Shown: positions 8,567 to 31,517, numbered from the stretch's first letter. The stretch is DNA of 32,000 nt from Methanosphaera stadtmanae DSM 3091 (GCF_000012545.1 NC_007681.1:240001-272000); one strand, 5' to 3'. Translations and numbers: made by a program. The notes: generated by a model not told the origin, from the letters alone.

Positions 8567-8601
8567 AAAAAAAAGTAATAGTTAGATTTAATTAATCTAA
8601 C
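8567..8601 (-). terminator. Hairpin plus T8 at the 3' end of the LCP-like gene
   Basis: GTTAGATT-TAATT-AATCTAAC (8581-8601, 8-bp stem) includes the stop codon. On the minus strand it is followed by T8 (the A8 run at 8567-8574). Confidence 0.45.
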
Positions 8602-9310
8602 CTAAAAGATTATTTAATCCAGAATAGGATATAAATTGTGCAAATTCAGATGCTGGAACAGCTTTTATATTTCCTTGACTATACTGTTCAATTCCTGCTT
8701 GAATAAGAGCTCCTTTATTGTTATTTTTCTTAGCAGAATCAATAATTCCCTGTGCTAAGTTTTCTATAGCATCTCCACGAGTTGCACCATTATTTGATTG
8801 ATCTTCTCTTAAAAAATCAATAGAACTTACATTTTCAACCAACTGACCATTTGAATATACAGGACCTACTGCATTAATCATAGCATCAATTGCTGTTGGT
8901 GTTACTACTAAAACCATATCTGTTTTCATACCTGTATGATATTCAACAATTTCCTGTGCAATCTTTGTCCCGTTTTCTAAGTCACTACTCCATAGTGAGT
9001 CATGTAAATACCATCTTGTAAGGCCTTCTGCTTGCATATCAGGTGTTGGAGTTAATGTTGGATGAGCAAGACCGCCTGGATATACTGGTGTCACATTACC
9101 CAGTTTTCCATTATTAACATTAACAACAAATGCCATATCAACTGAACCTACACCAGGTCTATTTTCAGAAGGATCACTACATAGTATGAGTATGTTATGC
9201 TCTCCTTTAAATGTTTTTTGTCCTTGCTGGTAATTTAGAAATAAATATACTCCAAATATTACAATAATAGCAAGTATGGCCAGTAATATTATTTTCTTTT
9301 TTGAAACCAT
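8597..9310 (-). CDS. Membrane-anchored ectodomain protein, divergent LytR-CpsA-Psr (LCP)-like
   Basis: An N-terminal TM helix is followed by blocks NILILCSDPSENRPGVGSVDMAFVVNV, MKTDMVLVVTPTAIDAMINAVGPVY and FLREDQSNNGATRGDAIENLAQGII. These occur in the same order as LCP domain blocks as I recall them. Several canonical Arg residues are not obviously retained. SD AGGATGA is present. Confidence 0.45.
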   Translation of the reverse strand: MVSKKKIILLAILAIIVIFGVYLFLNYQQGQKTFKGEHNILILCSDPSENRPGVGSVDMAFVVNVNNGKLGNVTPVYPGGLAHPTLTPTPDMQAEGLTRWYLHDSLWSSDLENGTKIAQEIVEYHTGMKTDMVLVVTPTAIDAMINAVGPVYSNGQLVENVSSIDFLREDQSNNGATRGDAIENLAQGIIDSAKKNNNKGALIQAGIEQYSQGNIKAVPASEFAQFISYSGLNNLLG

Positions 9311-9426
9311 ATAATCATCCTATATATTATTATATATACTTCTTTGAATAATATTATTAAAATATATTTACATTCTAATGATATATTAAATTAATTAATA
9401 ATAACATACATAATGTAACACAGAAC

Positions 9427-9458
9427 TATTTATTAAATCTAATATTAGATAATAAATA
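9427..9458. promoter_or_regulatory. Imperfect 32-nt palindrome in the divergent promoter region (operator candidate)
   Basis: The sequence is TATTTATT-AA-ATCTAATATTAGAT-AATAAATA. The 14-nt core is a perfect palindrome (9437-9450) and the 8-nt outer arms are complementary with a 2-nt bulge. Confidence 0.25.
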
Positions 9459-9473
9459 CATAATTATGAATAA

Positions 9474-11447
9474 TTGGAGGTAATTATCTTGAAAATACCA
9501 CACATATTTGATGAGGATATAGAAAGAATAAGGGAGCTTAGAAATGAAGTATCTGATTCAAAAAACATCTTTAAAGACAAAGTATCCTCTGTTTTAAAAA
9601 GTTCCATTAAAAATAAGAAAGTTCTATCAAAACAGGAAAGGAAAGAAGTATCTTTAAAAATATTAAATGATAATAAATCCCATGAAATACCATTAAACAA
9701 AAAACTACCTCTAGTTTCAATAATTATTAAAGCAACACATAAAAACTATCTATTAAATCTATTAAACACATTTTCTACACTGGATACATATTATTCGAAC
9801 TATGAATTAATTATAATTCATAACATGAAAGATGATCTTTTAAAATACATAGATAATAAGAAAGATGTTATTTTAGTGTCCTGTGAAGATAAATCATTAA
9901 CACAAGCAGAAAATGAGGCATCACATAAATCTAAGGGTGAATATTTATTATTTATTGATGATGATACTATACCCTTCGATGGATTTTTAAATCATATGGT
10001 AAATACAATGCTTACAAAAGAAAATGTAGGTGTTGTAGGTTCACGTTTAATTTATCCAGAATTAAAACTCAATAGAACCAAAAGTTATAAAGTTGCACAT
10101 GAAGGAATCTATTTTAGGGAAAAAAATAACCTTATAGAAACATACAATAAAAATGATGGAAGAAGATATTATACAGCAGATGAAGAAGAATGTGAAGTAA
10201 TAGCAACTTCATCAGTTGCATTTTTAGTTAAAAAATCAGTACTTATGGGTGTAGGTGGATTTAATGAGAATTATGTTGAATTTTATGAAGTAATAGATTT
10301 ATGTTTAAGACTACATAAAAAAGATTATAAAAACTATTATAATCCAAAAGTAATGTTATATCATTTTTGTCTTGAAAATCATGATGTGGATGTATTTGAA
10401 AGGGATAAAAAAATATTTATCAACACATGGAATAAATACATCTTACATAATCTATTAAAAGATAAATTATATGCAAATTATCTCTTCTCAGATAAGGCAT
10501 TAACAGTAGCATTAGTTGTTACACAAAGTGTCTGTGAAACAACAGCCGGAGACTTTTTCACAGCAATAACACTTGCACATAACTTGAAAGATTTTGGATG
10601 GAATATTAAATTCTTATCACAGCACCCCTCAAAGTATGAGAGAAATTGGTATCATTTAGATGATGATATTGATGTTGTAATATCCTTGCTTGATAGATAT
10701 AATCTAAGAAAAATAGAATCAAATAGAAAATCACTCATAAAAGTAGCATGGATACGTAACTGGTTTGAAAGGTGGATGAAACTCTCATATCTTGATGATT
10801 ATAACATAATACTCTCAAGTAGTAAAAAAGCATGTGGTGTTATTGGAGAAAAAATAGATAGAAAAGTATATTTCTATCCACTAGCAACAGATTCAACTAT
10901 TTTCAATGAAAAACTACAACCTAACAATGAATATATTTGTGATTACTGTTTTACTGGAAGTTATTGGAAGTCAGATAGAGAGATTATATCGGCTCTTTGT
11001 CCTGATAATATAGATTATACATTTAATTTATATGGAGCAAATTGGGATAAGATTCCAAGTCTTAAAAAGTATCATAAGGGTTTTATAAAATATGATGATA
11101 TTCCACAGGTTTATGCTTCTACAAAGATAGTACTTGATGATGCAAATCATGTTACACGAGGCTGGGGATCAGTAAATAGTCGTGTATTTGATGCATTTGC
11201 ATCTGGATGTTTAGTACTTACGAATGGAACAATGGGAAATACTGATTTATTTAATGGTATGATACCTGAATATCATTCAAAGGAAGAATTACAAGATAAA
11301 CTTAATTATTATATGGAACATACCCATGAAAAAGAGAAAATAGTGCAGGAGATACAGGAAATTATACTTGAAAAACACACCTATAAACACAGAGCAACTA
11401 AATTAAAAAGTCTTCTTAACTTCTATATACATAAATATACTGATTAA
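9474..11447 (+). CDS. Two-domain glycosyltransferase: GT2 domain plus C-terminal CgeB-like (DUF3880/Glyco_trans_1_2-type) domain
   Basis: The GT2 core runs LVSIIIKA...YELIIIHN...GEYLLFIDDDTIP. The C-terminus GSYWKSDREI...NLYGANW...VNSRVFDAFASGCLVLTN...KHTYKHRA looks CgeB-like. The track start is TTG 9474, but GGAGG at 9476-9480 favours TTG 9489 (MKIPHIF...). Confidence 0.75.
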   Translation: MEVIILKIPHIFDEDIERIRELRNEVSDSKNIFKDKVSSVLKSSIKNKKVLSKQERKEVSLKILNDNKSHEIPLNKKLPLVSIIIKATHKNYLLNLLNTFSTLDTYYSNYELIIIHNMKDDLLKYIDNKKDVILVSCEDKSLTQAENEASHKSKGEYLLFIDDDTIPFDGFLNHMVNTMLTKENVGVVGSRLIYPELKLNRTKSYKVAHEGIYFREKNNLIETYNKNDGRRYYTADEEECEVIATSSVAFLVKKSVLMGVGGFNENYVEFYEVIDLCLRLHKKDYKNYYNPKVMLYHFCLENHDVDVFERDKKIFINTWNKYILHNLLKDKLYANYLFSDKALTVALVVTQSVCETTAGDFFTAITLAHNLKDFGWNIKFLSQHPSKYERNWYHLDDDIDVVISLLDRYNLRKIESNRKSLIKVAWIRNWFERWMKLSYLDDYNIILSSSKKACGVIGEKIDRKVYFYPLATDSTIFNEKLQPNNEYICDYCFTGSYWKSDREIISALCPDNIDYTFNLYGANWDKIPSLKKYHKGFIKYDDIPQVYASTKIVLDDANHVTRGWGSVNSRVFDAFASGCLVLTNGTMGNTDLFNGMIPEYHSKEELQDKLNYYMEHTHEKEKIVQEIQEIILEKHTYKHRATKLKSLLNFYIHKYTD

Positions 11448-11452
11448 TTCAA

Positions 11453-11470
11453 TTCTTCTTTTTTTATTTT
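11453..11470 (+). terminator. Oligo-T tract after the GT2-CgeB gene
   Basis: The sequence is ttcttctttttttatttt, directly after the stop. A gap of about 180-230 nt precedes the next gene. Confidence 0.35.
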
Positions 11471-11625
11471 ATATGTTAAAGTAATAGGTATATGTCTTAT
11501 TTTTTGAAAAACTACTTATTATTACTTCTTTTTTATTATTTAAATATAGAAATATATAATATACTAGAATAATATATCTAATAATTAATTGGATTATTAA
11601 ACATATTTATTATTAATGCTTTAAT

Positions 11626-12468
11626 ATGAATTGTTTAATTCTCTTTTCAGTGTATAATGACGTGGAGCATTATAATATGGGAATGAATAATATATATGAA
11701 AAAATTACTAATTTTTACAAGTATAAATCCTTACTTAGTGAATTAGTACAAAGAGATATTAAAATAAAATATAGAAGGTCTGTTCTAGGTATTTTATGGA
11801 GTTTTCTAGATCCATTATTATCAATGATTGTATTAACAATAATATTTTCAACATTATTTTCAAAAACTATTCCTAATTATCCAGTATATTATCTTAGTGG
11901 AATGTTAACATATGCTCTGTTTAGGGGAGGATCAACCGCTGCTATGCGTTCACTTGTAAGTTCGTCAGGTATATGGAAAACAATTTATGTTCCAAAGTAT
12001 TTATATGTATTATCAGCAGTTTTATCAAATTTTGTAACTTATGTTTTATCATTAGTAATTTTATTTGCAATAATGTTAATAATGAAAGTACCATTTACAA
12101 TATATATAATATTTGCAAGTTTACCAATACTAGCAGTTTTAATGTTTACTACAGGTGTGGGACTTGTTATGGGAACTTTAAATGTGTTCTTTAGAGATAT
12201 GCAACATTTATATAGTGTACTTACACTAGTTTTAATGTATGCTTTACCTATATTCTATCCAGCAAGTATTGTTCCTGTACAATTTAGGTTTATACAAGAC
12301 TTCAATCCATTATATCATATGCTTGTATGTATAAGATCTTGTTTCTTGTATGGAACATTATATCCAATATCATCATTGATTATTTCATTAGTATCAGGTC
12401 TTGTATTTCTGGTATTAGGACTGTTCTTATTATATAAATTTCAGGATAAATTTGTATTATATGTATAA
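11626..12468 (+). CDS. ABC-2 polysaccharide/teichoic-acid exporter permease (Wzm/TagG-like)
   Basis: The motif ELVQRDIKIKYRRSVLGILWSFLDPLL is followed by six hydrophobic helices. SD GTGGAG at 11662-11667 favours ATG 11677 (MGMNNIY...) as the true start. Confidence 0.85.
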   Translation: MNCLILFSVYNDVEHYNMGMNNIYEKITNFYKYKSLLSELVQRDIKIKYRRSVLGILWSFLDPLLSMIVLTIIFSTLFSKTIPNYPVYYLSGMLTYALFRGGSTAAMRSLVSSSGIWKTIYVPKYLYVLSAVLSNFVTYVLSLVILFAIMLIMKVPFTIYIIFASLPILAVLMFTTGVGLVMGTLNVFFRDMQHLYSVLTLVLMYALPIFYPASIVPVQFRFIQDFNPLYHMLVCIRSCFLYGTLYPISSLIISLVSGLVFLVLGLFLLYKFQDKFVLYV

Positions 12469-12491
12469 ATATTTTGTAGGAGGAAAGTGTT

Positions 12492-13241
12492 TTGGATAAA
12501 AATAAGGTAGTTATTGATGTGGAAGATGTGGCTATGAAATTTAATTTAGGCCAGGAAAAAACAGATAACTTTAAGGAATTTGTAATTAAAGCACTGAAAA
12601 AAGAACTTCTTTTTCAGCCATTTTGGGCATTAAAAGGAGTTTCATTTAAGATTCATAAGGGTGAAAAGGTAGCATTCATAGGTTCAAATGGTGCTGGAAA
12701 AAGTACATTATTAAAAATCATAGCAGGAGTTATGAAACCAACAGAAGGTTCTGTTGAAGTACATGGTCGTATAGCACCACTTTTAGCACTAGGAGCAGGT
12801 TTTGATTATAATTATACTGGTAGTGAAAATATTTTCCTTAATGGATCTTTTCTTGGATACTCTAAACAATATATGCATGATAAGTATGATGAAATAGTTG
12901 AATTTTCAGAAATTGGTGATTTTATTGATGTTCCTGTAAAAAACTATTCATCAGGTATGAAATCTCGTCTAGCATTTTCAATAGCAACAACAGTAAAATC
13001 TCAGATACTTATATTAGATGAAGTATTGTCTGTGGGTGATGCAGCATTTAAGGCTAAATCAACTAAAAGAATGAAAGAAATGATGGCTGGGGATGTTACA
13101 TTACTATTTGTATCACATTCAATCTCTCAAGTAAAAGAATTATGTGATAGAGCAATATGGCTTGATCATGGAAAAGTACTTATGGATGGAGAAGTTAATG
13201 AAGTCTGTGATAAATACCTTGAATTTGTAAGAAATAAATAG
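12492..13241 (+). CDS. ABC exporter ATP-binding protein (Wzt/TagH-like, short form without a C-terminal glycan-binding domain)
   Basis: It uses a TTG start after GGAGGA. Walker A GSNGAGKSTLLK, signature YSSGMKSRLAF and Walker B ILILDEVLSVGD are present. Confidence 0.9.
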   Translation: MDKNKVVIDVEDVAMKFNLGQEKTDNFKEFVIKALKKELLFQPFWALKGVSFKIHKGEKVAFIGSNGAGKSTLLKIIAGVMKPTEGSVEVHGRIAPLLALGAGFDYNYTGSENIFLNGSFLGYSKQYMHDKYDEIVEFSEIGDFIDVPVKNYSSGMKSRLAFSIATTVKSQILILDEVLSVGDAAFKAKSTKRMKEMMAGDVTLLFVSHSISQVKELCDRAIWLDHGKVLMDGEVNEVCDKYLEFVRNK

Positions 13242-13298
13242 ATTCTATATCTATTCTATTTTTCTTAAGAAAAAAACTTTTTTTTAGGTTTTGTTATA

Positions 13299-14255
13299 AT
13301 GAACAAATCAGATAATAAAATAACAGTTATAATTCCCAATTATAATAATCAGAAATTATTAGCAAATCTACTTGAATCACTAAAACAAGTTACATTACCT
13401 CATGATATTATTATTGTAGATAATGCATCAAGTGATAATAGTACTACATATATTAAAACTAATTTTCCAGAGATTACTTTAATAGAAAACAAAACAAACA
13501 CTGGTTTTGCTCATGCTGTAAATCAGGCAATAAAAATTGCTACAACAGATTATGTGTTACTTCTAAATAATGATACTATTGTAACAGAATCTGCATTTAA
13601 AAACATGTTTGATTTAATTAGTACTGACTCATCAATCTTTTCAGTCACATCTAAAATGATTCAAAAACATAATCCAAATTTAATTGATGATACAGGAGAT
13701 GAATATTCAATCATGGGTTGGACAAAAAAAAGAGGATTTAATCATTCTGTATCTGAATTTACACAAAGTGGTGAAGTATTTGGGGCATGTGCAGGAGCAG
13801 CACTATATAGGCGGCTTGTTTTTCTAGAAATAGGTTATTTTGATGAAAATTTTGAAAGCTATGTTGAAGATGTGGATATAAGTATAAGGGCAAGACTCTA
13901 TGGATACACTTCATACTACTGTGCTGATGCTATTATATATCACTATGGTAGTGCAACATCTGGTTCTAAATATAATTCATTTAAGGTAAGAATATCTGCA
14001 AGAAACAACATATATCTATTATACAAGAATCTATCATTATGGATGAAGATAGTTAATTTTATTTTCATAGTAATGGGTATTGTTATTAAATACTTATACT
14101 TCTATAGAAAAGGTTATGGTCAAGATTATATTGGTGGTGTATGTGAGGGTTTTAGAACAAGAAAACAATTAGATAAAATAGAAGGTGTTTCCTTTAAGAA
14201 TTATCTTAAATTAGAATTATTATTAATAAAAAATACTTTTAAATATTTATCATAA
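13299..14255 (+). CDS. Family 2 glycosyltransferase (WbbL/rhamnosyltransferase-like subgroup) with a C-terminal hydrophobic helix
   Basis: Motifs ITVIIPNYNN, IIIVDNASSDNS, NTGFAHAVNQA and VLLLNNDTIV are present. Confidence 0.85.
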   Translation: MNKSDNKITVIIPNYNNQKLLANLLESLKQVTLPHDIIIVDNASSDNSTTYIKTNFPEITLIENKTNTGFAHAVNQAIKIATTDYVLLLNNDTIVTESAFKNMFDLISTDSSIFSVTSKMIQKHNPNLIDDTGDEYSIMGWTKKRGFNHSVSEFTQSGEVFGACAGAALYRRLVFLEIGYFDENFESYVEDVDISIRARLYGYTSYYCADAIIYHYGSATSGSKYNSFKVRISARNNIYLLYKNLSLWMKIVNFIFIVMGIVIKYLYFYRKGYGQDYIGGVCEGFRTRKQLDKIEGVSFKNYLKLELLLIKNTFKYLS

Positions 14256-14268
14256 CAAAGGTGGGAGA

Positions 14269-15138
14269 ATGGATCTTTCAATTATCATAGTTAATTATTG
14301 CACATATCAACTAACAAAACAGGCAATTGATTCACTAATAGATACTATTGAGGGTATTAGTTATGAAATTATTGTAGTGGATAATGCATCAGGTGATGAT
14401 AGTTTAAATAGACTCATAAAAGACTATGAAAATACTTCTTTTGTATCATTCATTCCAAATAACAACAATGATGGTTTTGCTGTGGCAAATAATATTGGTT
14501 TTAGAGCTTCATGTGGGGACTATATTTTACTTCTTAATAGTGATGTTGTAGTAGGTGATAAAACAATTATTTCATCACTTAATTTTATTAAAAAAGATGA
14601 AACTATTGGTGCTCTGGGATGTAAAGTACTACTTCCAGATAATACTCTTGATAAGGCATGTAGAAGATCTTTTCCAACTCCTCTTGTTTCATTCTATAGA
14701 ATGGTGGGTTTATCTAGGTTATTCCCAATGAGTAAACAATTTAATAAGTATAATTTATCATATCTTGATGAAGATGATGTATACTCTGTTGATTGTATTG
14801 TTGGAGCATTCATGTTAATAAGAAAAGATGTGTATGAATTATGTGGTGGACTTGATGAATCATATTTTATGTATGGTGAAGATATAGATTTATGTTACAA
14901 TATTAAAGAATTGGGATATGATGTTGTATACTATGGTAAAAAAGAAGTAATTCATTATAAGGGGGCAAGTGGTTCAAATAAACGTTTATTATATGAATTC
15001 TATAATTCAATGAATATCTTCTATAATAAACATTATAGGGATAAGTACAATCCATTAATTAACCTAGTAATGTATATTGGTATTTGGACTATGTACTATG
15101 TTAAATTACTGATTTTTCACATAAAACAACACATATAG
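14269..15138 (+). CDS. Family 2 glycosyltransferase
   Basis: Motifs LSIIIVNYCT, IIVVDNASGDDS, NDGFAVANNIG, ILLLNSDVVV and YGEDIDLCY are present. SD GGTGGGAG lies upstream. Confidence 0.85.
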   Translation: MDLSIIIVNYCTYQLTKQAIDSLIDTIEGISYEIIVVDNASGDDSLNRLIKDYENTSFVSFIPNNNNDGFAVANNIGFRASCGDYILLLNSDVVVGDKTIISSLNFIKKDETIGALGCKVLLPDNTLDKACRRSFPTPLVSFYRMVGLSRLFPMSKQFNKYNLSYLDEDDVYSVDCIVGAFMLIRKDVYELCGGLDESYFMYGEDIDLCYNIKELGYDVVYYGKKEVIHYKGASGSNKRLLYEFYNSMNIFYNKHYRDKYNPLINLVMYIGIWTMYYVKLLIFHIKQHI

Positions 15139-15145
15139 TACTTAC

Positions 15146-15165
15146 TTTTTTTTTATTTATTTTTT
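15146..15165 (+). terminator. Oligo-T tract after the second GT2 gene
   Basis: The sequence is tttttttttatttatttttt, followed by an 82-nt gap before the next SD-led gene. Confidence 0.35.
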
Positions 15166-15220
15166 GAATAATTTTTATTATCCATAAAAAACATATATTA
15201 AAATAATAGGAGTTTGTGTT

Positions 15221-16609
15221 ATGATACGAGAAAATCAAAATGTTTTTAATATATGTAATGTTTTACTAGATATTCTAGTATTGGTTATATCAGTGTTTTT
15301 CTTGTATCATACATCAATGATACAACATAGGTATCCAATATCATTTTATTATACAACACTACTTTCTCTATTTATATTATTAATACCTAGTTATCTGTTC
15401 TTATATTATGAATTTAAATTATACACACCTCAAAGAACAAATAGAAGTATTTTTTCAGAATCATCAAAAATTTTACAAGTAAATTTCTTTGAATATTTAT
15501 TTTTATCAGCAATGTGTTATATGGAATTTTTAAATGTTTCAGCAGATTTTCTAATTAGTTTTTTAGTAATTAATTCTATTTTAGCAGTAATAGAACGCTC
15601 TATTATTAGAGGATTTCTAAGATTACTTAGAAGTAAGGGTTTTAATATAAAATATGTTCTAGTTATTGGTGCAGGAGAAGTTGGAAGAAATCTTGTAGAA
15701 ACTATAAAAATTAACACATACTTAGGATATAAAGTTATAGGCTTTCTTGATGATAATGTAATAGGTACTGTTAATGATGTTAAGGTAATTGGAAAAATAA
15801 ATACTTTAGAATCGATACTAGATACACACATGATTGATAGAGTTATTGTAAGTATTGCACCACGTCATTATAAGACATTAGAATCTATAATGGCTTGTTG
15901 TGAAAAGATGGGTGTCCGTGCAGATATAGTTCCAGATTATTATAGGTTTATAACATCTCATCCTACTATTGAGCTCTTGGATAACATTCCATTAATTAGT
16001 GTTCGTTATCTACCCCTTGATATTTCAATTAACAAGTACTTAAAAAGAACATTTGATGTTTTATTCGTTGTTGTAGCATCAATAATATTATCTCCACTTC
16101 TTGTGATTGTTGCAATAGCAATAAAACTAACATCTCCAGGTCCAATTATATATAAACAAGAACGTGTAGGTGAGAATGCAAAACCATTTATGATATATAA
16201 ATTTAGAAGTATGAAATCTGAAAATGAATATATTGATGATAAAAAATGGACACAGAAAGATGATCCAAGAGTAACAACTATTGGTAAAATCATTAGAAAA
16301 ACAAGTATTGATGAATTACCACAATTCTATAATATTTTCAAGGGGGATATGAGTCTTATTGGACCAAGACCAGAAAGACCATATTTTGTAAATAAATTCA
16401 GAGAATCAGTACCTAAATACATGATAAAGCATCATGTTAAGCCGGGTATGACTGGATGGGCACAGGTTAATGGTTATAGGGGTAATACATCTATTGTAAA
16501 GAGAATTAAATATGATATTTATTATGTTGAAAACTGGTCTATAATGTTGGATATTCGTATCTTTTTTAAAACATTACCTGCTCTATTAAATGATAAAAAC
16601 GCATACTAA
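15221..16609 (+). CDS. Polyprenyl-phosphate hexose-1-phosphate transferase (bacterial sugar transferase family, WbaP/WcaJ/TuaA-like initiating enzyme)
   Basis: Four N-terminal TM helices are followed by a Rossmann-like VLVIGAGEVG segment. The C-terminus carries KRTFDVLFV...SPGPIIYKQERVG...FMIYKFRSM...DPRVT.IG...SIDELPQF...GDMSLIGPRPERP...KPGMTGWAQVNG. Confidence 0.9.
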   Translation: MIRENQNVFNICNVLLDILVLVISVFFLYHTSMIQHRYPISFYYTTLLSLFILLIPSYLFLYYEFKLYTPQRTNRSIFSESSKILQVNFFEYLFLSAMCYMEFLNVSADFLISFLVINSILAVIERSIIRGFLRLLRSKGFNIKYVLVIGAGEVGRNLVETIKINTYLGYKVIGFLDDNVIGTVNDVKVIGKINTLESILDTHMIDRVIVSIAPRHYKTLESIMACCEKMGVRADIVPDYYRFITSHPTIELLDNIPLISVRYLPLDISINKYLKRTFDVLFVVVASIILSPLLVIVAIAIKLTSPGPIIYKQERVGENAKPFMIYKFRSMKSENEYIDDKKWTQKDDPRVTTIGKIIRKTSIDELPQFYNIFKGDMSLIGPRPERPYFVNKFRESVPKYMIKHHVKPGMTGWAQVNGYRGNTSIVKRIKYDIYYVENWSIMLDIRIFFKTLPALLNDKNAY

Positions 16610-18209: not shown

Positions 18210-18215
18210 ATTCAA

Positions 18216-19550: not shown

Positions 19551-19573
19551 AATTATTCTCCTACAAACATTAC

Positions 19574-19581
19574 TTTTTTTT
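19574..19581 (+). terminator. T8 run after ugd at the convergent junction
   Basis: The sequence is tttttttt, 24 nt after the ugd stop. It overlaps the stop codon of the minus-strand gene. Confidence 0.3.
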
Positions 19582-20731: not shown

Positions 20732-21015
20732 AATACCTAATTTTTGTAATGATTTTTGTACTATATGTGTCCCTCCCCTTTTTTCTTTGAATATATCTAG
20801 TATATTATTAATTATTTCTCTATTAATTTTTAAAGTTTATTATTAAATAATCAATATTCGATTAATATTAAAAATAGATAATTATATAAAAGACATATTT
20901 TAGAAAAGCAGTACTAAGAAATATAAAACTTTTTAAGATAGTTATTAGTATTAAATTATAAGAAATAATCTAAATATAAGTAGTAAATACTTTCTAAAAT
21001 TTCTTTATTATATGT

Positions 21016-23682: not shown

Positions 23683-24130
23683 ATATATACCTCATGACTA
23701 CTAGATGAAGTTATTCTATATTTTTTTTATTTAAGAATAATAATCTATTTTCTATTTATGATATTATAATTATTTAAGTATATTCTTAGATAATTTTAGA
23801 GAAAACCTAGTAATTATTGAAGTTCTAAATATTAAGCTGTATAACTATTGTTTCTAATACTCTGAAGTATTTTACCTAAAAAAATATGAAGTTCCATTAT
23901 TAATTTTAACAAGAATGTATTATTAAACAAATTCTATTTTGAAAATAGAGTTAAAATATCTAATCTAGAAAAAAGTGTGAATATTACTCTAATTTTAGTT
24001 AATTTCAGTTTTATAATTTAAATTCTTTAATCTAGTGAATTTTTTAATAGATTTTTGTTTTTCTCTAATAAATTATAAGTATTATAAAATGCACATTAAA
24101 CTATAATAACTATTAAATGGAGGTAAAGTA

Positions 24131-24592
24131 ATGAAAAATAATCAGGTAATTATTCTTTTAATATTGGGTATAGTTGCACTATTGGGAATTTCTATTTATG
24201 CGGGAATATTTAGTTTCAGTGATAATTCAACTAACAATTCAACTACTTTTAATATAACACCACCTTCTGGATATAGTATATCCAATCAAACAAATAATAC
24301 TATAACTATAGATAATGGAACTAAACAATTGAAGGTACGTAAATTCAGTGGTAATAATTCTATTTATCAAAGAATAGAAAGTTATAAATCTAAACATAAT
24401 ATTACTAATTTATCAGTAACTGAGTATTATTCTTCAAATTCTCAGAAAATAACAAAAACTGTTTCAGATGTAAATAATATAACTGATGTATGGTATTATG
24501 TGGATAAAAATAACACTGTCTATGGTATTTCAACATCAGGTAATGTGCCTGGAACAGATGATGTTGTTAAACAGATAGTTGATAAATTATAA
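24131..24592 (+). CDS. Small N-terminally anchored, Asn/Thr-rich extracellular protein (12 N-x-S/T sequons)
   Basis: SD GGAGGT lies 7 nt upstream. The signal-anchor is IILLILGIVALLGISIYAGIF, followed by a 120-aa polar domain. The gene is isolated between long AT-rich spacers. Confidence 0.6.
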   Translation: MKNNQVIILLILGIVALLGISIYAGIFSFSDNSTNNSTTFNITPPSGYSISNQTNNTITIDNGTKQLKVRKFSGNNSIYQRIESYKSKHNITNLSVTEYYSSNSQKITKTVSDVNNITDVWYYVDKNNTVYGISTSGNVPGTDDVVKQIVDKL

Positions 24593-24596
24593 GTTA

Positions 24597-24615
24597 TTTT
24601 TTTGATATATTTTTT
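24597..24615 (+). terminator. Two T-runs after the small ORF
   Basis: The sequence is tttttttgatatatttttt, beginning 5 nt after the stop. Confidence 0.35.
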
Positions 24616-24991
24616 CAAAAACATGATTATAATATAAAATAATACTTTTTTATTTTTTTTAATTTTCCAATATATATTATCAAATATTAGTTAAGTCAAA
24701 CTAAATTAGTAAAGTAACTGATTGTATGTATTTTTTCATAGAATCTGTTTATGGGATATGCTTTGAGAATTAACATAATTAAGGGTCTTATTTCTATAAA
24801 ATCTAGAAAAAAAGATAATATTTTAAAGAAATTATTATCTTATCTTAATATTTAAATATAATTAAATATAGACTAATTATTAGTTAAGAAAATAAGTTAA
24901 TTAGATTATAAATTAGTTTGTTTAAGTTAATAATTGTATTTATAATGATTATTTTTTTTATTTTAATATTATCAATTAATAATCATCTTGT

Positions 24992-26293
24992 TTGAATATG
25001 GATTTTAAAAATACCATTATCAATAATAATAAAAGTGATATAATGAAAATATGTGTTATAGGTCAAGGATATATAGGTATACCTACAGCAGCATTATTTG
25101 CATCCAATGGATGTGATGTGGTAGGTGTAGATATTAATGAAGAAATAATAAGTAATTTAAATAATGGAGTTATGACAATAGAAGAACCAAAAATTAATGA
25201 AATTATGAATGCTTGTTTGGATAATGGAACATATCATGCAAGTTTAACTCCTGAAGAAGCTGATGTTTATATAATTACAGTTCCAACACCATTTAAAAAA
25301 GAAGATTTATCCTGTGATTTAGGTTTTGTAATATCAGCATGTAAATCAATATTACCACTTATAAAAAAAGGAGATACTATCATAGTAGAATCAACAATAG
25401 CACCACTATCAACTGAAACAACAATAAAAGGTATCTTTGAAGATAGGGGATTTAATGTTGGTGAAGACATATACTTAGCACATTGTCCAGAAAGAGTTCT
25501 ACCAGGTAACATGGTTGATGAATTAATACATAACAATAGAATAGTTGGTGGAATCAACAAAAGAAGTGCTAAAAAAGCTGCTGAAGTTTATAAAATATTT
25601 GTTAAAGGTGAAGTTATAGAAACTGAAGCAAAAGTTGCTGAATTATCTAAGTGTATGGAAAATACATATAGGGATGTGAATATTGCACTAGCAAATGAAT
25701 TAGCAAAGATTGGATCAAAACTAGGAATTAACATATTAGATGTTATTAAAATAGCAAATAAACATCCTCGTGTAAATATACTTTCACCAGGGCCAGGAGT
25801 AGGTGGACATTGTCTTGCAATAGATCCATACTTCATATATTCACTTATACCAGAGACTGCAAAAATCATAAAACTGGCTAGAGATACTAATAGAAGTATG
25901 CCAGATTTTGTTGTTGAAAATGTTAGAAAAATTCTAAAAAATGAAGATAATCCAATAATATCAGTATTTGGTGTGGCATATAAAGGAAATTCTGATGATG
26001 ATAGGGAAAGTCCATCTTATGAAATAATCAACAATCTTAAAGAAGATTATACTTTGAAAATATATGATCCTCATATAGAAAAAATAGATCTAAGCTTTGA
26101 TGAAGCAATAAAAGATTCATCATTAATATTAGTACTTACAAATCATGATGAATTCATGCATATGGACTTTGATAAAATAAAACAAGAAATGAAAAAGCCA
26201 GTAATATTTGATACAAGAAATATTATAGATAAACATTCAATTCCAGATGATATTATATTATATAACTTTGGAAATTTATATGATGTAGAATAG
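24992..26293 (+). CDS. wecC: UDP-N-acetyl-D-mannosamine 6-dehydrogenase (WecC/Cap5O family)
   Basis: Motifs MKICVIGQGYIGIPTA, catalytic PGVGGHCLAIDP and AYKGNSDDDRESP are present. The track start is TTG 24992. ATG 25043 (MKICVIG) matches the usual N-terminus. Confidence 0.85.
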   Translation: MNMDFKNTIINNNKSDIMKICVIGQGYIGIPTAALFASNGCDVVGVDINEEIISNLNNGVMTIEEPKINEIMNACLDNGTYHASLTPEEADVYIITVPTPFKKEDLSCDLGFVISACKSILPLIKKGDTIIVESTIAPLSTETTIKGIFEDRGFNVGEDIYLAHCPERVLPGNMVDELIHNNRIVGGINKRSAKKAAEVYKIFVKGEVIETEAKVAELSKCMENTYRDVNIALANELAKIGSKLGINILDVIKIANKHPRVNILSPGPGVGGHCLAIDPYFIYSLIPETAKIIKLARDTNRSMPDFVVENVRKILKNEDNPIISVFGVAYKGNSDDDRESPSYEIINNLKEDYTLKIYDPHIEKIDLSFDEAIKDSSLILVLTNHDEFMHMDFDKIKQEMKKPVIFDTRNIIDKHSIPDDIILYNFGNLYDVE

Positions 26294-26306
26294 TGGTGAC
26301 TTTTCA

Positions 26307-28895
26307 ATGCATCCTTTTATTAGTGTAATTATACCTGTTTATAATGTTCAATTCACAATAGAAAGTTGTTTTCTATCTTTAAAAAATCAAACTATAGGAT
26401 TTGAAAATTTAGAAATAATCTTTGTTGATGATTGTTCAACAGATAATAGTCCAACTATAATTGGGAATTATGAAAAAAAATATGACAATGTTAAAGCAAT
26501 CTATTCCAAAGAAAATAGTGGTGTTGCAGGAAAACCTAGAAACATGGGTATGAATATTGCAACAGCAAAATATGTCATGTTTTTAGATCCTGATGATACT
26601 TTTACTGTTGATGCTTGTGAAGTATTATATAATGAAATAGAAAAAAGTAAAGCAGATATAGTTAGTGGACTACATTCTAAGAAAAATAAATTTAATAATA
26701 ATGAAGAGATATTTCCTGGTTTGATTATTAATACATTTTCAGATCCTGAAAAATCATGGTCTGATAGACAGGGTGATGTTGATGTTTTCAAACAAAAATA
26801 TCCTAAACACTTTTATATGGATTCAATTGAAGATAAATTTTCTGTTTTAGGAAATTTTGGGCTTTCAAGTAAAATATTTAATCTTGATTTTATAAAATCA
26901 AATAATATTTCATTTCCAGAATATATTCCAGGTGAGGATTCAGTATTTCTTTTCAATGCATTGATAAATGCAAATGGAATTGCTTTTATAAATAAAATCA
27001 TTTATTCTTACACAACATTTCGTGATGGAGATAATAAATCAGTAAGTTTCCAAGTAGATTTAGATAAAAATCTTGGTCGTATAAAAGCATATAGCCTCAT
27101 GTTAGAAATCAGTGAAGAAAAAGGTATTGTTGATGAATATGTTCACTATATTCTAGCAAATAAATTAACATATTTCTTAAAAAATTTCATAATTAAACCA
27201 GAATATATTCCTGAAACTGATATGTCCTGTATTTTTGATAAGGGTTATGACTTATTTAATGAAGTTAATAAAAGAGATAATGGTGTATTAAGTCCTGAAT
27301 TTAAGAATATTATTGAAAATATTGCCAATAGAAATTATGATGAGACAATAACTGCTTGTTATGAATATAAGAGAAAATATTTTAGTAACATTGTTAAAGT
27401 TAATAAGAAAACTATTCCATTTGCAAAGGATATGAATGTAGCTGTAGTATTAGATCCATTTACATATAATTCATATAGTAATGAATTCAATGCAATACCT
27501 GTTGAACCAGAAAACTGGCATGAAAAATTTGAAAGAGAGGATATAGATTTATTTTTCTGTGAATCAGCATTTAGTGGTGTTGGTGAAGGTAATCTTGTAG
27601 AGGGAATAGCTGTTGAAAATAATTATTCTCCATGGGGTGGAAAAATAGGTGTTAACCTGATTCATGGATGGGATAGTAGAAATCAATTAATGGATATATT
27701 AAAGTACTGTAAAGAACATGGAATTCCTACAATTTTTTGGAATAAAGAGGATCCAACATCATTTGATAACCCTAATTACAACTTTATAGACACAGCTCTA
27801 CATTTTGATTATATTTTTACAACAGATGAAGATAGTATAATAAGATATAGGGCAAGAGGACATGAAAATGTTCATGTACTCTTATTTGCTTCTCAAATAA
27901 ATCTATTCAATCCTATTAGTACTAAACGTTCTAATGATATTATATTTGCAGGTAGTTGGTATAATCAATTCGAAAATCGTTGTAAAACAATGTGTGATTT
28001 TTTTGATAAGGTAATTAACAGTAAGTATGGCTTAAAAATATATAACAGGGCATCTGATTCAACTGCTGAAAATAGAATGTTTCCAGCAAAATATGATCCA
28101 TTCATATATCCAAAAGTATCCTTTGATAAAATGCCCTCAGTATATAAAGAAAGTAAAATGGCATTAAATATTAACACAGTTACTGATTCACACACCATGT
28201 TTGCAAGACGAGTTTATGAATTAATGTCTTCAAATACATTCATACTATCAAACTATTCTAAAGGAATATATGAACTTTTTAAAGATAATGTTATCTATTT
28301 AGATAGAATAGATTCTTTGGATTTATCTGAAGAAGAAATATCCAAAATCTGTGAAGAAAATCTCTATGATGTTCTTCAAAATCATACATATAGTAATAGA
28401 TTTAAATATATTTTAAATTGTATTGGTTTTAAATATAAAGAAAGTATTGAAGAAGTAAATATAATATATAAGGCAGAAAATGATGATGAAATAGATGAAA
28501 TCATAGCAGATTTTAATTCTATTGACTATTATTACAAGAACTGTTTTATTCTCTCTAAAAATGTAAATCTTAAAAAATCAGTTGAGAATAAAGATAATAA
28601 TATAACATTTATGGACTATGAAAATATTTACTTCTTATCTGAAAATAGCTCAGATGAAAATTATTTCTTATTTAGAAATATGGATAATAAAATCAATTCT
28701 GACTTTATTAAAAAGGCATTGTTACATTATAAATATTTAGAAAATAACATAGGCATAAAAGAAAATAATGAAAAATATGTATTTAACAAAACAAGAGAAT
28801 ATGAAGATACATTATTTAATATGAGTCAATTTGATAATATAATTGAAGTTTTACTAAAATACAGAATAAATAAATTCTCTGTTTATAATATTTAG
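26307..28895 (+). CDS. 862-aa two-domain glycosyltransferase: intact GT2 plus CgeB-like (DUF3880/Glyco_trans_1_2-type) C-terminal half
   Basis: The GT2 half carries ISVIIPVYNV...IIFVDDCSTDNS...VMFLDPDDTF. The second half carries VAVVLDPFTYNSY...DLFFCESAF...IPTIFWNKEDP...DYIFTTD...IIFAGSWYN...FARRVYELMSSNTFILSN. Confidence 0.8.
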   Translation: MHPFISVIIPVYNVQFTIESCFLSLKNQTIGFENLEIIFVDDCSTDNSPTIIGNYEKKYDNVKAIYSKENSGVAGKPRNMGMNIATAKYVMFLDPDDTFTVDACEVLYNEIEKSKADIVSGLHSKKNKFNNNEEIFPGLIINTFSDPEKSWSDRQGDVDVFKQKYPKHFYMDSIEDKFSVLGNFGLSSKIFNLDFIKSNNISFPEYIPGEDSVFLFNALINANGIAFINKIIYSYTTFRDGDNKSVSFQVDLDKNLGRIKAYSLMLEISEEKGIVDEYVHYILANKLTYFLKNFIIKPEYIPETDMSCIFDKGYDLFNEVNKRDNGVLSPEFKNIIENIANRNYDETITACYEYKRKYFSNIVKVNKKTIPFAKDMNVAVVLDPFTYNSYSNEFNAIPVEPENWHEKFEREDIDLFFCESAFSGVGEGNLVEGIAVENNYSPWGGKIGVNLIHGWDSRNQLMDILKYCKEHGIPTIFWNKEDPTSFDNPNYNFIDTALHFDYIFTTDEDSIIRYRARGHENVHVLLFASQINLFNPISTKRSNDIIFAGSWYNQFENRCKTMCDFFDKVINSKYGLKIYNRASDSTAENRMFPAKYDPFIYPKVSFDKMPSVYKESKMALNINTVTDSHTMFARRVYELMSSNTFILSNYSKGIYELFKDNVIYLDRIDSLDLSEEEISKICEENLYDVLQNHTYSNRFKYILNCIGFKYKESIEEVNIIYKAENDDEIDEIIADFNSIDYYYKNCFILSKNVNLKKSVENKDNNITFMDYENIYFLSENSSDENYFLFRNMDNKINSDFIKKALLHYKYLENNIGIKENNEKYVFNKTREYEDTLFNMSQFDNIIEVLLKYRINKFSVYNI

Positions 28896-28911
28896 TTAAG
28901 GTGGGATTATT

Positions 28912-30165
28912 ATTAAAAAGGAAATAAAAATTTCTCTCTGTTTATCAGTTTTTCCAGATAAAAAATCAACAGCAGAGTGTTTTGAAAGCTTACTTAATCA
29001 AACATTAGATGAAATTGAAATTATATGTATGCCTGATAATAATTGTGATGAGGATGTTTTAGAAATAATAGATTATTATAAAACTCAAAGTAACATCCCA
29101 ATATCTGTAATGAAACAAGAATTTAACTATAATCAAGTAAATGGTGAATATATATTCTTATGTAATTCTAAAGATTGGTTATCTATGGTAGCTTTAGATT
29201 ATATTTATAATATTGCTAAAGAAAATAATTCTGACATTGTACTAAGTTCAGTAAATATTTATGATGAGAAATTAAAATCCATATATGAATTAGATTATGG
29301 TTTAAGTAATGATTTTATGAATTCTAATTCATTATCTCATAAATTATTTTCAAATGAACTTTTTAGTATGGTAAAATATCCATATAATCTTTATAAAACT
29401 TCGTTTTTAGAGAAAATAGATGCGGATTTAAATTTAAATGAATATGATATTGGATTTTTCTTCTTTAAAACTGTTTTCAATACATCAAAAATTTCATTTA
29501 GTATGGAACCTATTTTGAATATAAGAAAAAAAGAAAGTGATCTATATTATTTTATGGCTAATGATTTTAATAGAAACTTAAATAAAGAATATGTTTCATT
29601 TGACGTAGATTCTTTTTTCAAGAGTATGGAGAATATAAAATCTTTTTTTAGAGAAAAAGGAATATATGATCTTTATAAATATGATTTAACTAATTATTTT
29701 ATGAATATATATAGAAATATTTGTACTTTTAATATGGAAAATGAAGAAGTTTTTTATAAAAAATTACATGAAACTATTCTAAATTATTATAAAACAAATC
29801 ATACAGATTATCTATTAAATTTAACTTCACCTAATATGGAATTTTATAGAATTCTTCTAAAATCAAAAAGTAAATTTGAAGTAGATGCTTTATATAAAAT
29901 AAATGATTTAAAACTTGAAAATGAAAAATTAAGTAGAGAAGTTAATAAGTTAACTAAATTATTAAAAGAAGAAAAAAACTTAAAAAATAAAGAAATAAAA
30001 CAAAATAAAAAAATAAGACATAAATTAGATGAAGTTTTAAATTCTAATTCATGGAAATTAATGAATGGATTTAGAATGATAGGACTTTATAAGTCAGTTG
30101 CTTTAGTTATTTTTATTCTTTTATTAATTATTTCTATTATGATTATTTTAATAATAAAATATTAA
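28912..30165 (+). CDS. Degenerate GT2-like protein with a C-terminal coiled coil and TM anchor. No canonical start covers the GT2 N-terminus. The conservative ATG-initiated ORF is 29029..30165.
   Basis: The frame is open from 28900. Residues (I)KKEIKISLCLSVFPDKKSTAECFESLLNQTLDEIEIIC precede the first ATG (29029). SD AAGGTGGG at 28898-28905 is followed by ATT ATT ATT. The DXD region reads FLCNSKDW. The C-terminus carries KLENEKLSREVNKLTKLLKEE...NSNSWKL plus the hydrophobic tail VALVIFILLLIISIMIILII. Confidence 0.6.
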   Translation: MKKEIKISLCLSVFPDKKSTAECFESLLNQTLDEIEIICMPDNNCDEDVLEIIDYYKTQSNIPISVMKQEFNYNQVNGEYIFLCNSKDWLSMVALDYIYNIAKENNSDIVLSSVNIYDEKLKSIYELDYGLSNDFMNSNSLSHKLFSNELFSMVKYPYNLYKTSFLEKIDADLNLNEYDIGFFFFKTVFNTSKISFSMEPILNIRKKESDLYYFMANDFNRNLNKEYVSFDVDSFFKSMENIKSFFREKGIYDLYKYDLTNYFMNIYRNICTFNMENEEVFYKKLHETILNYYKTNHTDYLLNLTSPNMEFYRILLKSKSKFEVDALYKINDLKLENEKLSREVNKLTKLLKEEKNLKNKEIKQNKKIRHKLDEVLNSNSWKLMNGFRMIGLYKSVALVIFILLLIISIMIILIIKY

Positions 30166-30194
30166 TTAAATACAACAAACATATATTAAAAATC

Positions 30195-31517
30195 GTGATA
30201 ATTATGAAAATTGGGATTGTACTTGGAACTAGACCTGAAATAATTAAAATGGCGCCTGTAATTGATGAAATAAAAAGAAATAATTCTGAATTAGTTCTCA
30301 TACACACAGGACAACATTATGATATTAACATGTCAAAACAATTTTTTATTGACCTGGATTTACCCTTACCTCAATATAATATTGGTATAGGCTCAAATAC
30401 TGCTATTAAACAAATAAGTATCATCATATCAAAACTTGAAGAAATACTAAAAAAGGAAGAAGTTGACATAGTATTAGTTCAAGGAGACACAAATGCAGTA
30501 TTAGCAGGAGCATTAGCTGCAAATAAACTTAAAATTCCTGTAGGACATGTGGAGGCAGGACTAAGATCATTTGATAAGAACATGCCCGAAGAAATAAATA
30601 GATTGGTTGCAGATAGTTGTTCTACACTCTACTTTGTACCAACAAAGGAAACTGGAATAAATCTATTAAATGAGGGAATCAGTCATAAATCAATCTATGT
30701 TACAGGTAATACTGTGGTAGATGCATGTAAAAGAAACATAAATCTTGCACTTAAAAATAGTAAGATAAAAGATGAAATAAAATTCAATAATTACATAGCA
30801 CTAACACTACACAGAGCAGAAAATGTGGATGATGATGAAAGACTAATAAACATAGTTAATAGTCTTATTAATTTACCATATAACATAGTATTTCCAATAC
30901 ACCCACATACAAGAAAATCTCTTGAAAAACTAGATTTATACAAGAAAATTGAAGAATCAGAACATATTCAAATAATAAAACCATTAGGATATCTTGACTT
31001 CCTATATTTAATATCACAAGCTACCCTAGCACTAACAGATTCTGGTGGAGTACAAGAAGAAGCAATAACACTTGATGTTCCATGTGTTACATTAAGATAT
31101 AATACAGAAAGACCAGAAACAATTACATGTGGTGGAAATGTACTTGCAGGAACAGAATCAGAGGAGATTACAAGAAATATTAGCAACATACTAAATAATG
31201 AATCAGTATATGAAAGTATGAGCAGTGCTAAAAATCCATATGGTGATGGAGACAGTGCAAAACAAATATATTCAATAATAGAAGAACATTACAATGAAAA
31301 CAACCTTAAAATAACTCGTGCAGATAAGATAATGGACTTTGAAGGATACTATATGTATGTTATTCAAGAGAATATTACAGTAGCAGAATATGAAAATAAA
31401 AATAAGGGACAAATCATTGAACAAGTATTTACTAATGGAAGGCCAGAATATATAGAAGAACAATTAAATCTAGAAAATAAAACAATTATAGTAAAAAAAT
31501 TTGAAAATGAAGATTAA
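30195..31517 (+). CDS. wecB: UDP-N-acetylglucosamine 2-epimerase (non-hydrolysing, WecB/MnaA family) with a C-terminal extension of about 74 aa
   Basis: Motifs GTRPEIIKMAPV, HTGQHYD, VQGDTNAVLAGALAA, HVEAGLRSFD, MPEEINR, TDSGGVQEEA and YGDGDSA are present. The track start is GTG 30195, and ATG 30204 (MKIGIVLG) is more likely. Confidence 0.9.
   Translation: MIIMKIGIVLGTRPEIIKMAPVIDEIKRNNSELVLIHTGQHYDINMSKQFFIDLDLPLPQYNIGIGSNTAIKQISIIISKLEEILKKEEVDIVLVQGDTNAVLAGALAANKLKIPVGHVEAGLRSFDKNMPEEINRLVADSCSTLYFVPTKETGINLLNEGISHKSIYVTGNTVVDACKRNINLALKNSKIKDEIKFNNYIALTLHRAENVDDDERLINIVNSLINLPYNIVFPIHPHTRKSLEKLDLYKKIEESEHIQIIKPLGYLDFLYLISQATLALTDSGGVQEEAITLDVPCVTLRYNTERPETITCGGNVLAGTESEEITRNISNILNNESVYESMSSAKNPYGDGDSAKQIYSIIEEHYNENNLKITRADKIMDFEGYYMYVIQENITVAEYENKNKGQIIEQVFTNGRPEYIEEQLNLENKTIIVKKFENED

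Follow-up and report, generated by a model that had tools for sequence, protein, structure and literature searches.

The 32-kb window analysed here, by which we mean the whole stretch of Methanosphaera stadtmanae DSM 3091 DNA (32,000 nt), has a G+C content of ~26% and carries at 8597–31517 a cluster of envelope-glycan genes that is best read, on its gene content, as an ABC-transporter-dependent cell-wall polysaccharide pathway of the Gram-positive type. The original prediction for this DNA had placed a bacterial-style, teichuronic-acid-like wall glycopolymer locus in an AT-rich, probably pseudomurein-walled member of the Methanobacteriales. Its host assignment was borne out, as the window proteins, Alba included, are exact matches to M. 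stadtmanae DSM 3091 entries, among them ABC56619.1 (named 'conserved hypothetical membrane-spanning protein'), ABC56625.1 ('predicted bacterial sugar transferase') and ABC56634.1 (WecB). All of its open reading frames (ORFs), at the coordinates given, and its quoted motifs were likewise recovered. By accession arithmetic, 8597–31517 would correspond to Msp_0202 to Msp_0217. Family calls are based on Pfam and NCBIfam profile searches, with equivalog cut-offs as given by the models. The part of the locus that is conserved across Methanosphaera comprises the following genes:

8597–9310, minus strand: DUF4012 protein with a predicted LCP (LytR–CpsA–Psr) fold, 237 amino acids (aa), membrane-anchored (Pfam DUF4012, E = 2e-30)
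9474–11447, plus strand: 657-aa two-domain transferase, GT2 plus CgeB-like Glyco_trans_1_2 (Pfam)
11626–12468, plus strand: Wzm-type ABC-2 permease (ABC2_membrane, PF01061, E = 1.5e-15)
12492–13241, plus strand: Wzt-type ATPase, 249 aa, without a carbohydrate-binding tail (PF00005, 83.6 bits)
13299–14255, plus strand: 318-aa GT2, probable adaptor transferase, triad member 1 (Pfam)
14269–15138, plus strand: 289-aa GT2, probable adaptor transferase, triad member 2 (Pfam)
15221–16609, plus strand: WbaP/WcaJ-type polyprenyl-phosphate hexose-1-phosphate transferase, the initiator (Bac_transf, PF02397, E = 1e-71)
16590–18209, plus strand: membrane glycosyltransferase of predicted GT-C fold, STT3-like, without WWD (no Pfam match; AlphaFold model)
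18216–19550, plus strand: UDP-glucose 6-dehydrogenase Ugd, supplying UDP-glucuronic acid (UDP-GlcA) (all three UDPG_MGDP_dh domains)
19580–20731, minus strand: DUF1616 polytopic membrane protein with a C-terminal extracellular domain (PF07760, E = 4e-22)

The initiator combines N-terminal membrane helices with a CoA_binding_3 domain (PF13727, E = 6e-16), scores 497 bits against TIGR03023 (cut-off 411) and aligns to the solved WbaP structure (8t53) over residues 32–462. The predicted phosphoglycosyl transferase is therefore present, although it is of the full-length WbaP/WcaJ type and not a minimal monotopic enzyme. It forms a GT2–GT2–initiator triad with the two small transferases upstream. 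The 289-aa member is found at 46–69% identity in nearly all related loci; the 318-aa member reaches 42–63% in many archaeal and Firmicutes loci, with weaker, paralogue-level matches elsewhere. Ugd passes TIGR03026 and scores 514 bits against the TuaD model, and its gene is kept beside Wzm and Wzt in Methanobacterium. The 657-aa transferase, a candidate for the polymerase of the conserved core, has orthologues at 44–48% identity in Methanosphaera and 38–41% in two Methanobacterium loci.

The exporter genes lie together, 24 nt apart. Wzm exceeds the PF01061 cut-off (57.8 versus 26.9 bits), its best NCBIfam matches being galactan Wzm (83 versus 380 bits) and KpsM, both below their cut-offs. Wzt consists of a nucleotide-binding domain only, covering positions 2–240 of the 244 in galactan Wzt and the first 239 of the 549 in the TagH model; both scores are under the equivalog cut-offs (220 versus 400 and 199 versus 320 bits), and equivalog-level identity with a characterised exporter was found for neither protein. 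Among the major non-shadow ORFs of 8597–31844 no Polysacc_synt, Wzy_C or O-antigen ligase match, and hence no Wzx flippase or Wzy polymerase family, was detected; two homologues of the GT-C protein carry an EpsG match, yet the modelled fold is GT-C. The expectation of a Wzm/Wzt pair with a short, tail-less Wzt, and that of an ABC-transporter-dependent pathway, were both upheld.

Structural comparison of the DUF4012 protein. The AlphaFold (AF2) model, built on 26 homologues, has a predicted local distance difference test (pLDDT) score of 87 and a helix at residues 4–34. A Foldseek search of the PDB with this model placed LCP enzymes in all of the top 33 positions (E = 1e-8 to 0.011, with 32 at ≤4e-4); they include Cps2A, TagT, TagU, TagV, LcpA, LytR, BrpA, MsrR, Psr and the A. 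oris LCP, and from the next match on probabilities fell below 0.5. TM-scores against these 33 ranged from 0.37 to 0.58 over the full model, anchor helix included. The protein thus combines an extracytoplasmic domain of LCP fold with a membrane anchor at its N-terminus. Single-sequence and profile searches of the PDB returned nothing useful, and fold comparison alone made the connection. HHalign against a profile of 15 LCP sequences gave 85% probability (E = 6e-6, residues 35–155), up from 58% in an earlier comparison with four LCPs only, with the C-terminal arginines still uncovered, and LytR_cpsA_psr (PF03816) matched weakly in 15 of the 26 family members (best E = 3e-4). Sensitive profile and structure comparison, which the original prediction had named as able to overturn its LCP-like call, thus left that call standing for the fold; the Pfam family, in contrast, is DUF4012 and not LytR_cpsA_psr, and the Arg–Asp pair of the LCP SIPRD motif has no counterpart in the alignment.

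Within the alignment, D46 and D58 fall on two LCP aspartates (GxD and (T/S)D(S/T)). The family has its own invariant residues in E49, H103–D104 and R178, and residues 69–93 contain no conserved Arg but an invariant TPVYPGG instead. R168 and R178 are both conserved, and HHalign left both unaligned to the LCP arginines. Altogether 15 residues, D58, D104 and R178 included, are invariant among members at 35–77% identity, which suggests a constrained site. Because the two aspartates align but the SIPRD pair is absent and other invariants take its place, the model points to an LCP fold with a remodelled site, and the protein is a candidate ligase, which after export would take the polymer off its lipid carrier and attach it to the wall. 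Some homologues already carry an LCP family label from JGI, and two M. smithii protein clusters were annotated as LCP by structure in a 2024 paper (PMC10939349). The gene adjoins the operon in the eight Methanosphaera loci that carry it, the contig ending first in most of the other eight; a distant homologue (P0115) lies in a non-glycan archaeal context, so that this adjacency is not universal.

For the GT-C protein, the AF2 model (pLDDT 87.6) confirmed the fold that had been proposed for a GT-C-like polytopic protein. The top 19 Foldseek matches in the PDB are STT3, AglB and PglB (E = 3e-13 to 2e-8), followed by AftA, ALG12, DPY19 and ArnT, the latter with a TM-score of 0.60 and a lower root-mean-square deviation (rmsd), and the C-terminal domain matches the AglB-S2 globular domain (3vu0, probability 1.00, TM 0.55). 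PDB searches by single sequence and profile again gave nothing useful. The WWD motif is absent from all 21 family members, no STT3 Pfam match was obtained for the window protein or its relatives, and archaeo_STT3 matches weakly at the N-terminus (24.5 bits, cut-off 450). A canonical AglB is rejected on the archaeo_STT3 score and the lack of WWDYG. The remark that no AglB is visible accordingly holds for the motif but understates the structural resemblance; as STT3, AglB and PglB are the nearest structures, protein glycosylation is a possible function. Outside Methanosphaera, close homologues occur in only a few other Methanobacteriaceae; some of the close homologues are annotated as ArnT family or match PMT_2. 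An exhaustive profile search yielded 40 clusters at E ≤ 1e-30, the distant relatives matching PMT_2 or DUF6541, not STT3. The gene lies directly 3' of the initiator in all 16 Methanosphaera loci. Its first ATG overlaps the initiator stop by 20 nt; because homologues are shorter (523–532 aa) and the first 12 residues have pLDDT <50, translation probably begins at the Met at 16626. Its candidate role is outer-face decoration or glycan transfer.

The C-terminal domain of the DUF1616 protein is beta-rich. The family occurs in 15 of the 16 Methanosphaera loci and in none of the 39 bacterial loci, being restricted to archaeal ones, and in six Methanobacterium loci (L021, L022, L025, L027, L030 and L032 in our numbering) it directly flanks the initiator or the LCP gene. 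The sole match for DUF1616 in the literature is an N-glycoprotein in Haloferax.

Taxonomic distribution of the locus. Scanning one genome per species returned 80 loci with an initiator homologue, grouped as follows (PGT, initiator phosphoglycosyl transferase):

Methanosphaera, 16 loci: PGT identity 61–73%; GT-C in 16, DUF1616 in 15, DUF4012 in 8 (in most others the contig ends first), canonical LCP in 0
Methanobacterium and Methanobrevibacter, 25 loci: PGT identity 45–54%; Wzm/Wzt in 13–14, Ugd in 10, DUF1616 in 6, DUF4012 in 3, canonical LCP in 2, GT-C in 0
Firmicutes, 39 loci: PGT identity 41–49%; canonical LCP in 13, Wzt in 14, DUF4012, DUF1616 and GT-C in 0

The Methanosphaera core (8597–20731) thus holds the DUF4012 protein, the 657-aa transferase, Wzm, Wzt, the triad, GT-C, Ugd and DUF1616. 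Methanobacterium shows the order Ugd–Wzm–Wzt, followed further on by GT2–GT2–initiator, and there the immediate neighbour of the initiator is DUF1616 (six loci), DUF4012 (three) or a canonical LCP (two; PF03816, E = 1e-39). One of the two LCP–initiator loci is on a 323-kb archaeal contig that also encodes Cdc48 and archease, and canonical LCPs are widespread in cultured Methanobacterium species, where NCBI names them 'LCP family protein'. The Firmicutes loci keep the triad at 42–50% identity and, in some, Wzt at 47–57%, with an LCP gene within 10 kb of the initiator homologue in 13 of the 39. Two of them, studied in detail, contain multi-domain GT2s, the GT-C-like families DUF2142, DUF6056 and DUF7657 and peptidoglycan hydrolases, with Wzt in one, and are typical wall-polysaccharide loci. 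The claim of a bacterial-type pathway is upheld; a canonical LCP lies beside an orthologous Methanobacterium initiator, and the Firmicutes counterparts are LCP-bearing wall-polysaccharide loci.

In an unrooted neighbour-joining tree of the initiator, the archaea form one clade along genus boundaries, apart from the Firmicutes. This topology is compatible with a single ancient transfer between the domains and vertical inheritance thereafter, the unrooted form of the tree giving no direction.

To the right of the core, 21016–31517 encodes:

21016–23682, minus strand: 888-aa transferase with two GT2 domains (two GT2 stretches in Pfam)
24131–24592, plus strand: 153-aa N-terminally anchored Asn/Thr-rich protein (one N-terminal hydrophobic segment; no family match)
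24992–26293, plus strand: UDP-N-acetylmannosamine (UDP-ManNAc) dehydrogenase-like, WecC-like enzyme (NF040825 397 bits, PRK11064 390 bits, both below cut-offs)
26307–28895, plus strand: 862-aa transferase, GT2 plus DUF3880 plus Glyco_trans_1_2 (Pfam)
29029–30165, plus strand: 378-aa truncated GT2 paralogue with a C-terminal membrane anchor (no Pfam GT2 match)
30195–31517, plus strand: WecB, non-hydrolysing UDP-GlcNAc 2-epimerase (Epimerase_2, E = 2e-116)

No counterparts of this part, with its two giant transferases, WecB and WecC, were found in the loci of other Methanosphaera species, and it is a species-specific module, conservation being limited to the core. WecB exceeds the TIGR00236 equivalog cut-off (446 versus 210 bits, residues 4–365). 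The WecC-like enzyme passes TIGR03026 and finds its best matches in UDP-ManNAc dehydrogenases. Uronic-acid precursor genes are therefore present as proposed, with Ugd and WecB confirmed and WecC reduced to a WecC-like assignment under the equivalog cut-offs. Pfam recognises five of the six announced GT2-containing proteins (657, 318, 289, 888 and 862 aa), with two domains in three of these; the degenerate paralogue at 29029–30165 is the sixth. This protein aligns with residues 40–403 of the 888-aa transferase at 23% identity over 391 columns (E = 2e-8), is without the first ~40 residues of the GT2 domain, reads NSK at the DxD (DAD) position and carries a coiled-coil-like stretch plus a membrane anchor at its C-terminal end. 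Judged by these features it is probably inactive, possibly a non-catalytic scaffold or a decaying gene. The N-terminal domain of the 888-aa protein resembles GalT1 and chondroitin synthase.

Comparison with characterised systems. Among known pathways, the ABC-dependent wall polysaccharides of Gram-positive bacteria (streptococcal group A carbohydrate/RGP, enterococcal Epa and lactococcal rhamnan) have in common with the predicted pathway of the locus a lipid-linked primer, multi-domain transferases, a tail-less Wzm/Wzt exporter, a GT-C protein acting outside and an LCP-type ligase. These pathways start with a WecA/GacO-type GlcNAc-1-phosphate transferase and use dTDP-rhamnose, whereas here the initiator is of the WbaP/WcaJ type, rml genes are absent, uronic-acid precursor genes are present, the wall consists of pseudomurein, an LCP variant of the DUF4012 type is the candidate ligase and DUF1616 is found in archaeal loci only. 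The Firmicutes initiator loci (Acetobacterium, Eubacterium, Eubacteriaceae and Lachnospiraceae) share the triad, Wzt in some, multi-domain GT2s and GT-C-like proteins; they differ in carrying a canonical LCP (PF03816), DUF2142/DUF6056/DUF7657 and hydrolases with GBS_Bsp-like repeats, and in lacking DUF4012, DUF1616 and an adjacent Ugd.

The B. subtilis tua operon, which makes an anionic uronic-acid product, likewise has a UDP-glucose dehydrogenase, a Bac_transf-family initiator and GT2s. It relies, however, on a flippase and a polymerase (TuaB/TuaE) and not on an ABC exporter. In the locus neither of these two is found and the tua equivalog scores fall short (TuaD 514 versus 700 bits, TuaG 20–92 versus 400), so that membership of the tua system was rejected; the term teichuronic-acid-like is apt for the predicted composition but not for the pathway. 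Wall teichoic acid synthesis (TagO, TagGH, TagTUV) offers an ABC ATPase whose TagH nucleotide-binding domain resembles the one here (199–219 bits) and the LCP enzymes TagT, TagU and TagV matched by the DUF4012 model, but TagO, TagB/TagF and CDP-glycerol or CDP-ribitol genes are missing here and TagH scores are below cut-off. The locus thus belongs to neither the tua nor the tag system. Archaeal N-glycosylation (AglB/STT3) shares the GT-C protein nearest STT3/AglB/PglB, C-terminal domain included, and differs in its WWDYG motif; the locus has instead a bacterial-type initiator and ABC-transporter export.

Taken together, the genes very probably make a lipid-linked, ABC-exported uronic-acid polymer. 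In the pathway we propose, Ugd would supply UDP-GlcA, to which WecB and the WecC-like enzyme would add UDP-ManNAc(A) in M. stadtmanae; the initiator would place a hexose-1-phosphate (glucose, by equivalog) onto polyprenyl phosphate at the inner membrane face, the two small GT2 enzymes would add adaptor sugars, the multi-domain transferases would extend the chain and Wzm/Wzt would export the lipid-linked polymer. Outside, the membrane-anchored LCP-fold DUF4012 protein would transfer the polymer to pseudomurein, and the GT-C protein would most likely decorate it at the outer face. Pseudomurein methanogens have a carrier of the bacterial type in undecaprenyl: pseudomurein intermediates linked to it have been isolated, and these methanogens are sensitive to bacitracin (PMC10117817). 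Building on the gene identities, protein folds, synteny and host described above, we infer the sugars used, the order of the steps and, above all, covalent attachment to pseudomurein, a plausible but putative step. Taken whole, from a uronic-acid glycopolymer on a polyprenyl carrier through ABC export to attachment on pseudomurein, the reading is a serious possibility that we place a little short of even. A more specific version is speculative and, on balance, doubtful: a Firmicutes wall-polysaccharide pathway would have been taken over by pseudomurein methanogens and its last step re-fitted, so that a remodelled DUF4012 protein without the pyrophosphate-clamping Arg–Asp, the archaea-only DUF1616 protein and a WWD-less GT-C would couple an acidic polymer to pseudomurein free of N-acetylmuramic acid (MurNAc), through a linkage chemistry unseen in bacteria.

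Several points weigh against attachment to the wall. PF03816 gives no match to the window DUF4012 protein even at E ≤ 10; the DUF4012 family has no counterpart of the SIPRD Arg–Asp, which is invariant in bacterial and Methanobacterium LCPs, and for this reason the activity of the protein is uncertain. No canonical LCP gene lies within 10 kb of the initiator in any Methanosphaera locus, pseudomurein lacks MurNAc, the usual LCP acceptor, and one of the structural matches, the A. oris LCP (5v8c), is known to glycosylate a protein. The M. stadtmanae polymer is, moreover, a prediction from genes, and the modelled STT3-like GT-C in the operon would offer a different end point. Such an end point would be protein glycosylation, in which the exported glycan is moved en bloc to surface proteins (for example, the many Asn/Thr-rich ones) by the GT-C or the LCP-fold protein. 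We consider this unlikely, even though the GT-C is structurally most similar to oligosaccharyltransferases, with a C-terminal domain that resembles the globular one of AglB, archaeo_STT3 registers weakly at its N-terminus, its gene follows the initiator throughout Methanosphaera and the S-layer glycan loci of Geobacillus and Paenibacillus also pair a WbaP-type initiator with Wzm/Wzt. The absence of WWD from the whole family makes recognition of an N-X-S/T sequon unlikely, ArnT matches about equally by TM-score and better by rmsd, the distant relatives side with PMT_2 or DUF6541, and GT-C is missing from Methanobacterium loci that keep the initiator, exporter and LCP.

An incomplete LCP catalytic set would also suit a capsule or exopolysaccharide, loosely held or released, with the LCP-fold protein non-catalytic or only hydrolysing the lipid link. 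Bacterial DUF4012 genes do occur in a Bifidobacterium exopolysaccharide/capsule locus (PMC5412050), and M. stadtmanae is reported to form biofilms (PMC4086402); this outcome is nevertheless improbable in our estimate, given the 15 residues that the DUF4012 family keeps invariant and the canonical LCPs found at the equivalent place in Methanobacterium. A membrane-anchored lipoglycan, the polymer being left on its carrier or moved to a membrane lipid after export, appears very unlikely: the ligase being a candidate and DUF1616, an archaea-only membrane protein, having no assigned role would leave room for it, but a polymer kept on the polyprenyl carrier would tie up a pool common to pseudomurein synthesis, and Pfam identifies no lipid-transfer enzyme in the locus.

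The general idea of a wall glycopolymer has been raised before. Methanobacteriales walls have been known since 1978 to hold sugars and phosphate beyond pseudomurein, the polymer and its attachment not being identified (PMC2812497), and the walls of a related genus hold further sugars and phosphate at teichoic-acid level, while teichoic-acid-like genes point to unidentified glycopolymers (Leahy 2010, PMC2812497). Many M. stadtmanae glycosyltransferases were inferred to have undergone lateral transfer, some from bacteria (Lurie-Weinberger et al. 2012), and several of these probably lie in 8597–31517 by accession mapping. The glycosyltransferase list of that study agrees with Msp_0202–Msp_0217 and also names Msp_0218 and Msp_0220, so that the locus probably continues beyond the right window edge. 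DUF4012 has been described in the bifidobacterial exopolysaccharide locus (PMC5412050) and is enriched in Gram-positive bacteria. In the literature searched, no archaeon had such a polymer or ligase defined by experiment, and no paper linked LCP proteins experimentally with Methanobacteriales walls. The novelty claimed originally thus stands for the experimental side, while the wall-glycopolymer idea and the bacterial origin of transferases were already published. New here are the DUF4012 fold assignment in the context of this locus, the recurrent association of the initiator with LCP or DUF4012 and DUF1616 in Methanobacteriaceae, the WWD-less STT3-like GT-C, and the division of the region into one core and one variable module.

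With its initiator, exporter, LCP-fold protein, DUF1616 and GT-C, the locus offers a defined and conserved set of genes for a candidate wall polymer in the human-gut methanogen M. stadtmanae, and the old question of extra sugars and phosphate in methanogen walls becomes testable. Should the polymer be wall-linked, Archaea would have their first defined secondary wall polymer system, and an example of a bacterial ligation enzyme adapting to a different wall. Such a surface polymer would likely matter for host immune recognition, as a receptor for phages and lytic enzymes, and as a vaccine or inhibitor target against gut and rumen methanogens.

Additional observations concern the related loci. 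In Methanobacterium, canonical LCP and DUF1616 genes lie directly beside the orthologous initiator in L025 (11537–13802) and L022 (1069–5678), the latter with a DUF4012 gene on the other side, so that both LCP types bracket one transferase. The initiator of L053, a Methanobrevibacter metagenome-assembled genome (MAG), branches at the base of the bacterial clade and not with the other archaea, and one LCP protein (P0327) is attributed to a Methanomicrobiales MAG ('Methanomicrobiales archaeon'); each could reflect a separate transfer or a binning error. In the Firmicutes loci L042 (5289–7919) and L077 (1216–4041 and 5671–7926), large peptidoglycan hydrolases (amidase, glucosaminidase, M23) with GBS_Bsp-like repeats adjoin the glycan genes, which suggests that wall-polysaccharide-binding autolysins are co-located with polymer genes.

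In the window itself, WecB has a C-terminal extension of ~75 aa past the 366-position model, and gene callers favour a start three codons downstream (437 aa). No tRNA or Rfam RNA was found in the window. The left 8.5 kb has no relation to the glycan locus; its genes encode PadR, an ABC exporter, a secreted beta-propeller protein, Alba, LeuA and an amidohydrolase. Between the amidohydrolase and DUF4012 genes lies a tyrosine-recombinase-like gene (7599–8465, minus strand) whose product passes the Pfam threshold by a narrow margin and reaches 77 of the 220 bits required by the XerA model; no att-like repeats were found flanking it. It is present in all M. stadtmanae contigs; in the other Methanosphaera species with loci extending that far, the position lacks it. 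The same PGT protein occurs on >100 metagenome contigs, and gene order was the same, at 99–100% identity, in all six that were inspected. The secreted beta-propeller protein (PQQ/BamB-like, 415 aa; 2569–3816, plus strand) is encoded just downstream of the PadR-regulated ABC-2 exporter; it has a signal peptide and, at the C-terminus, a membrane anchor.

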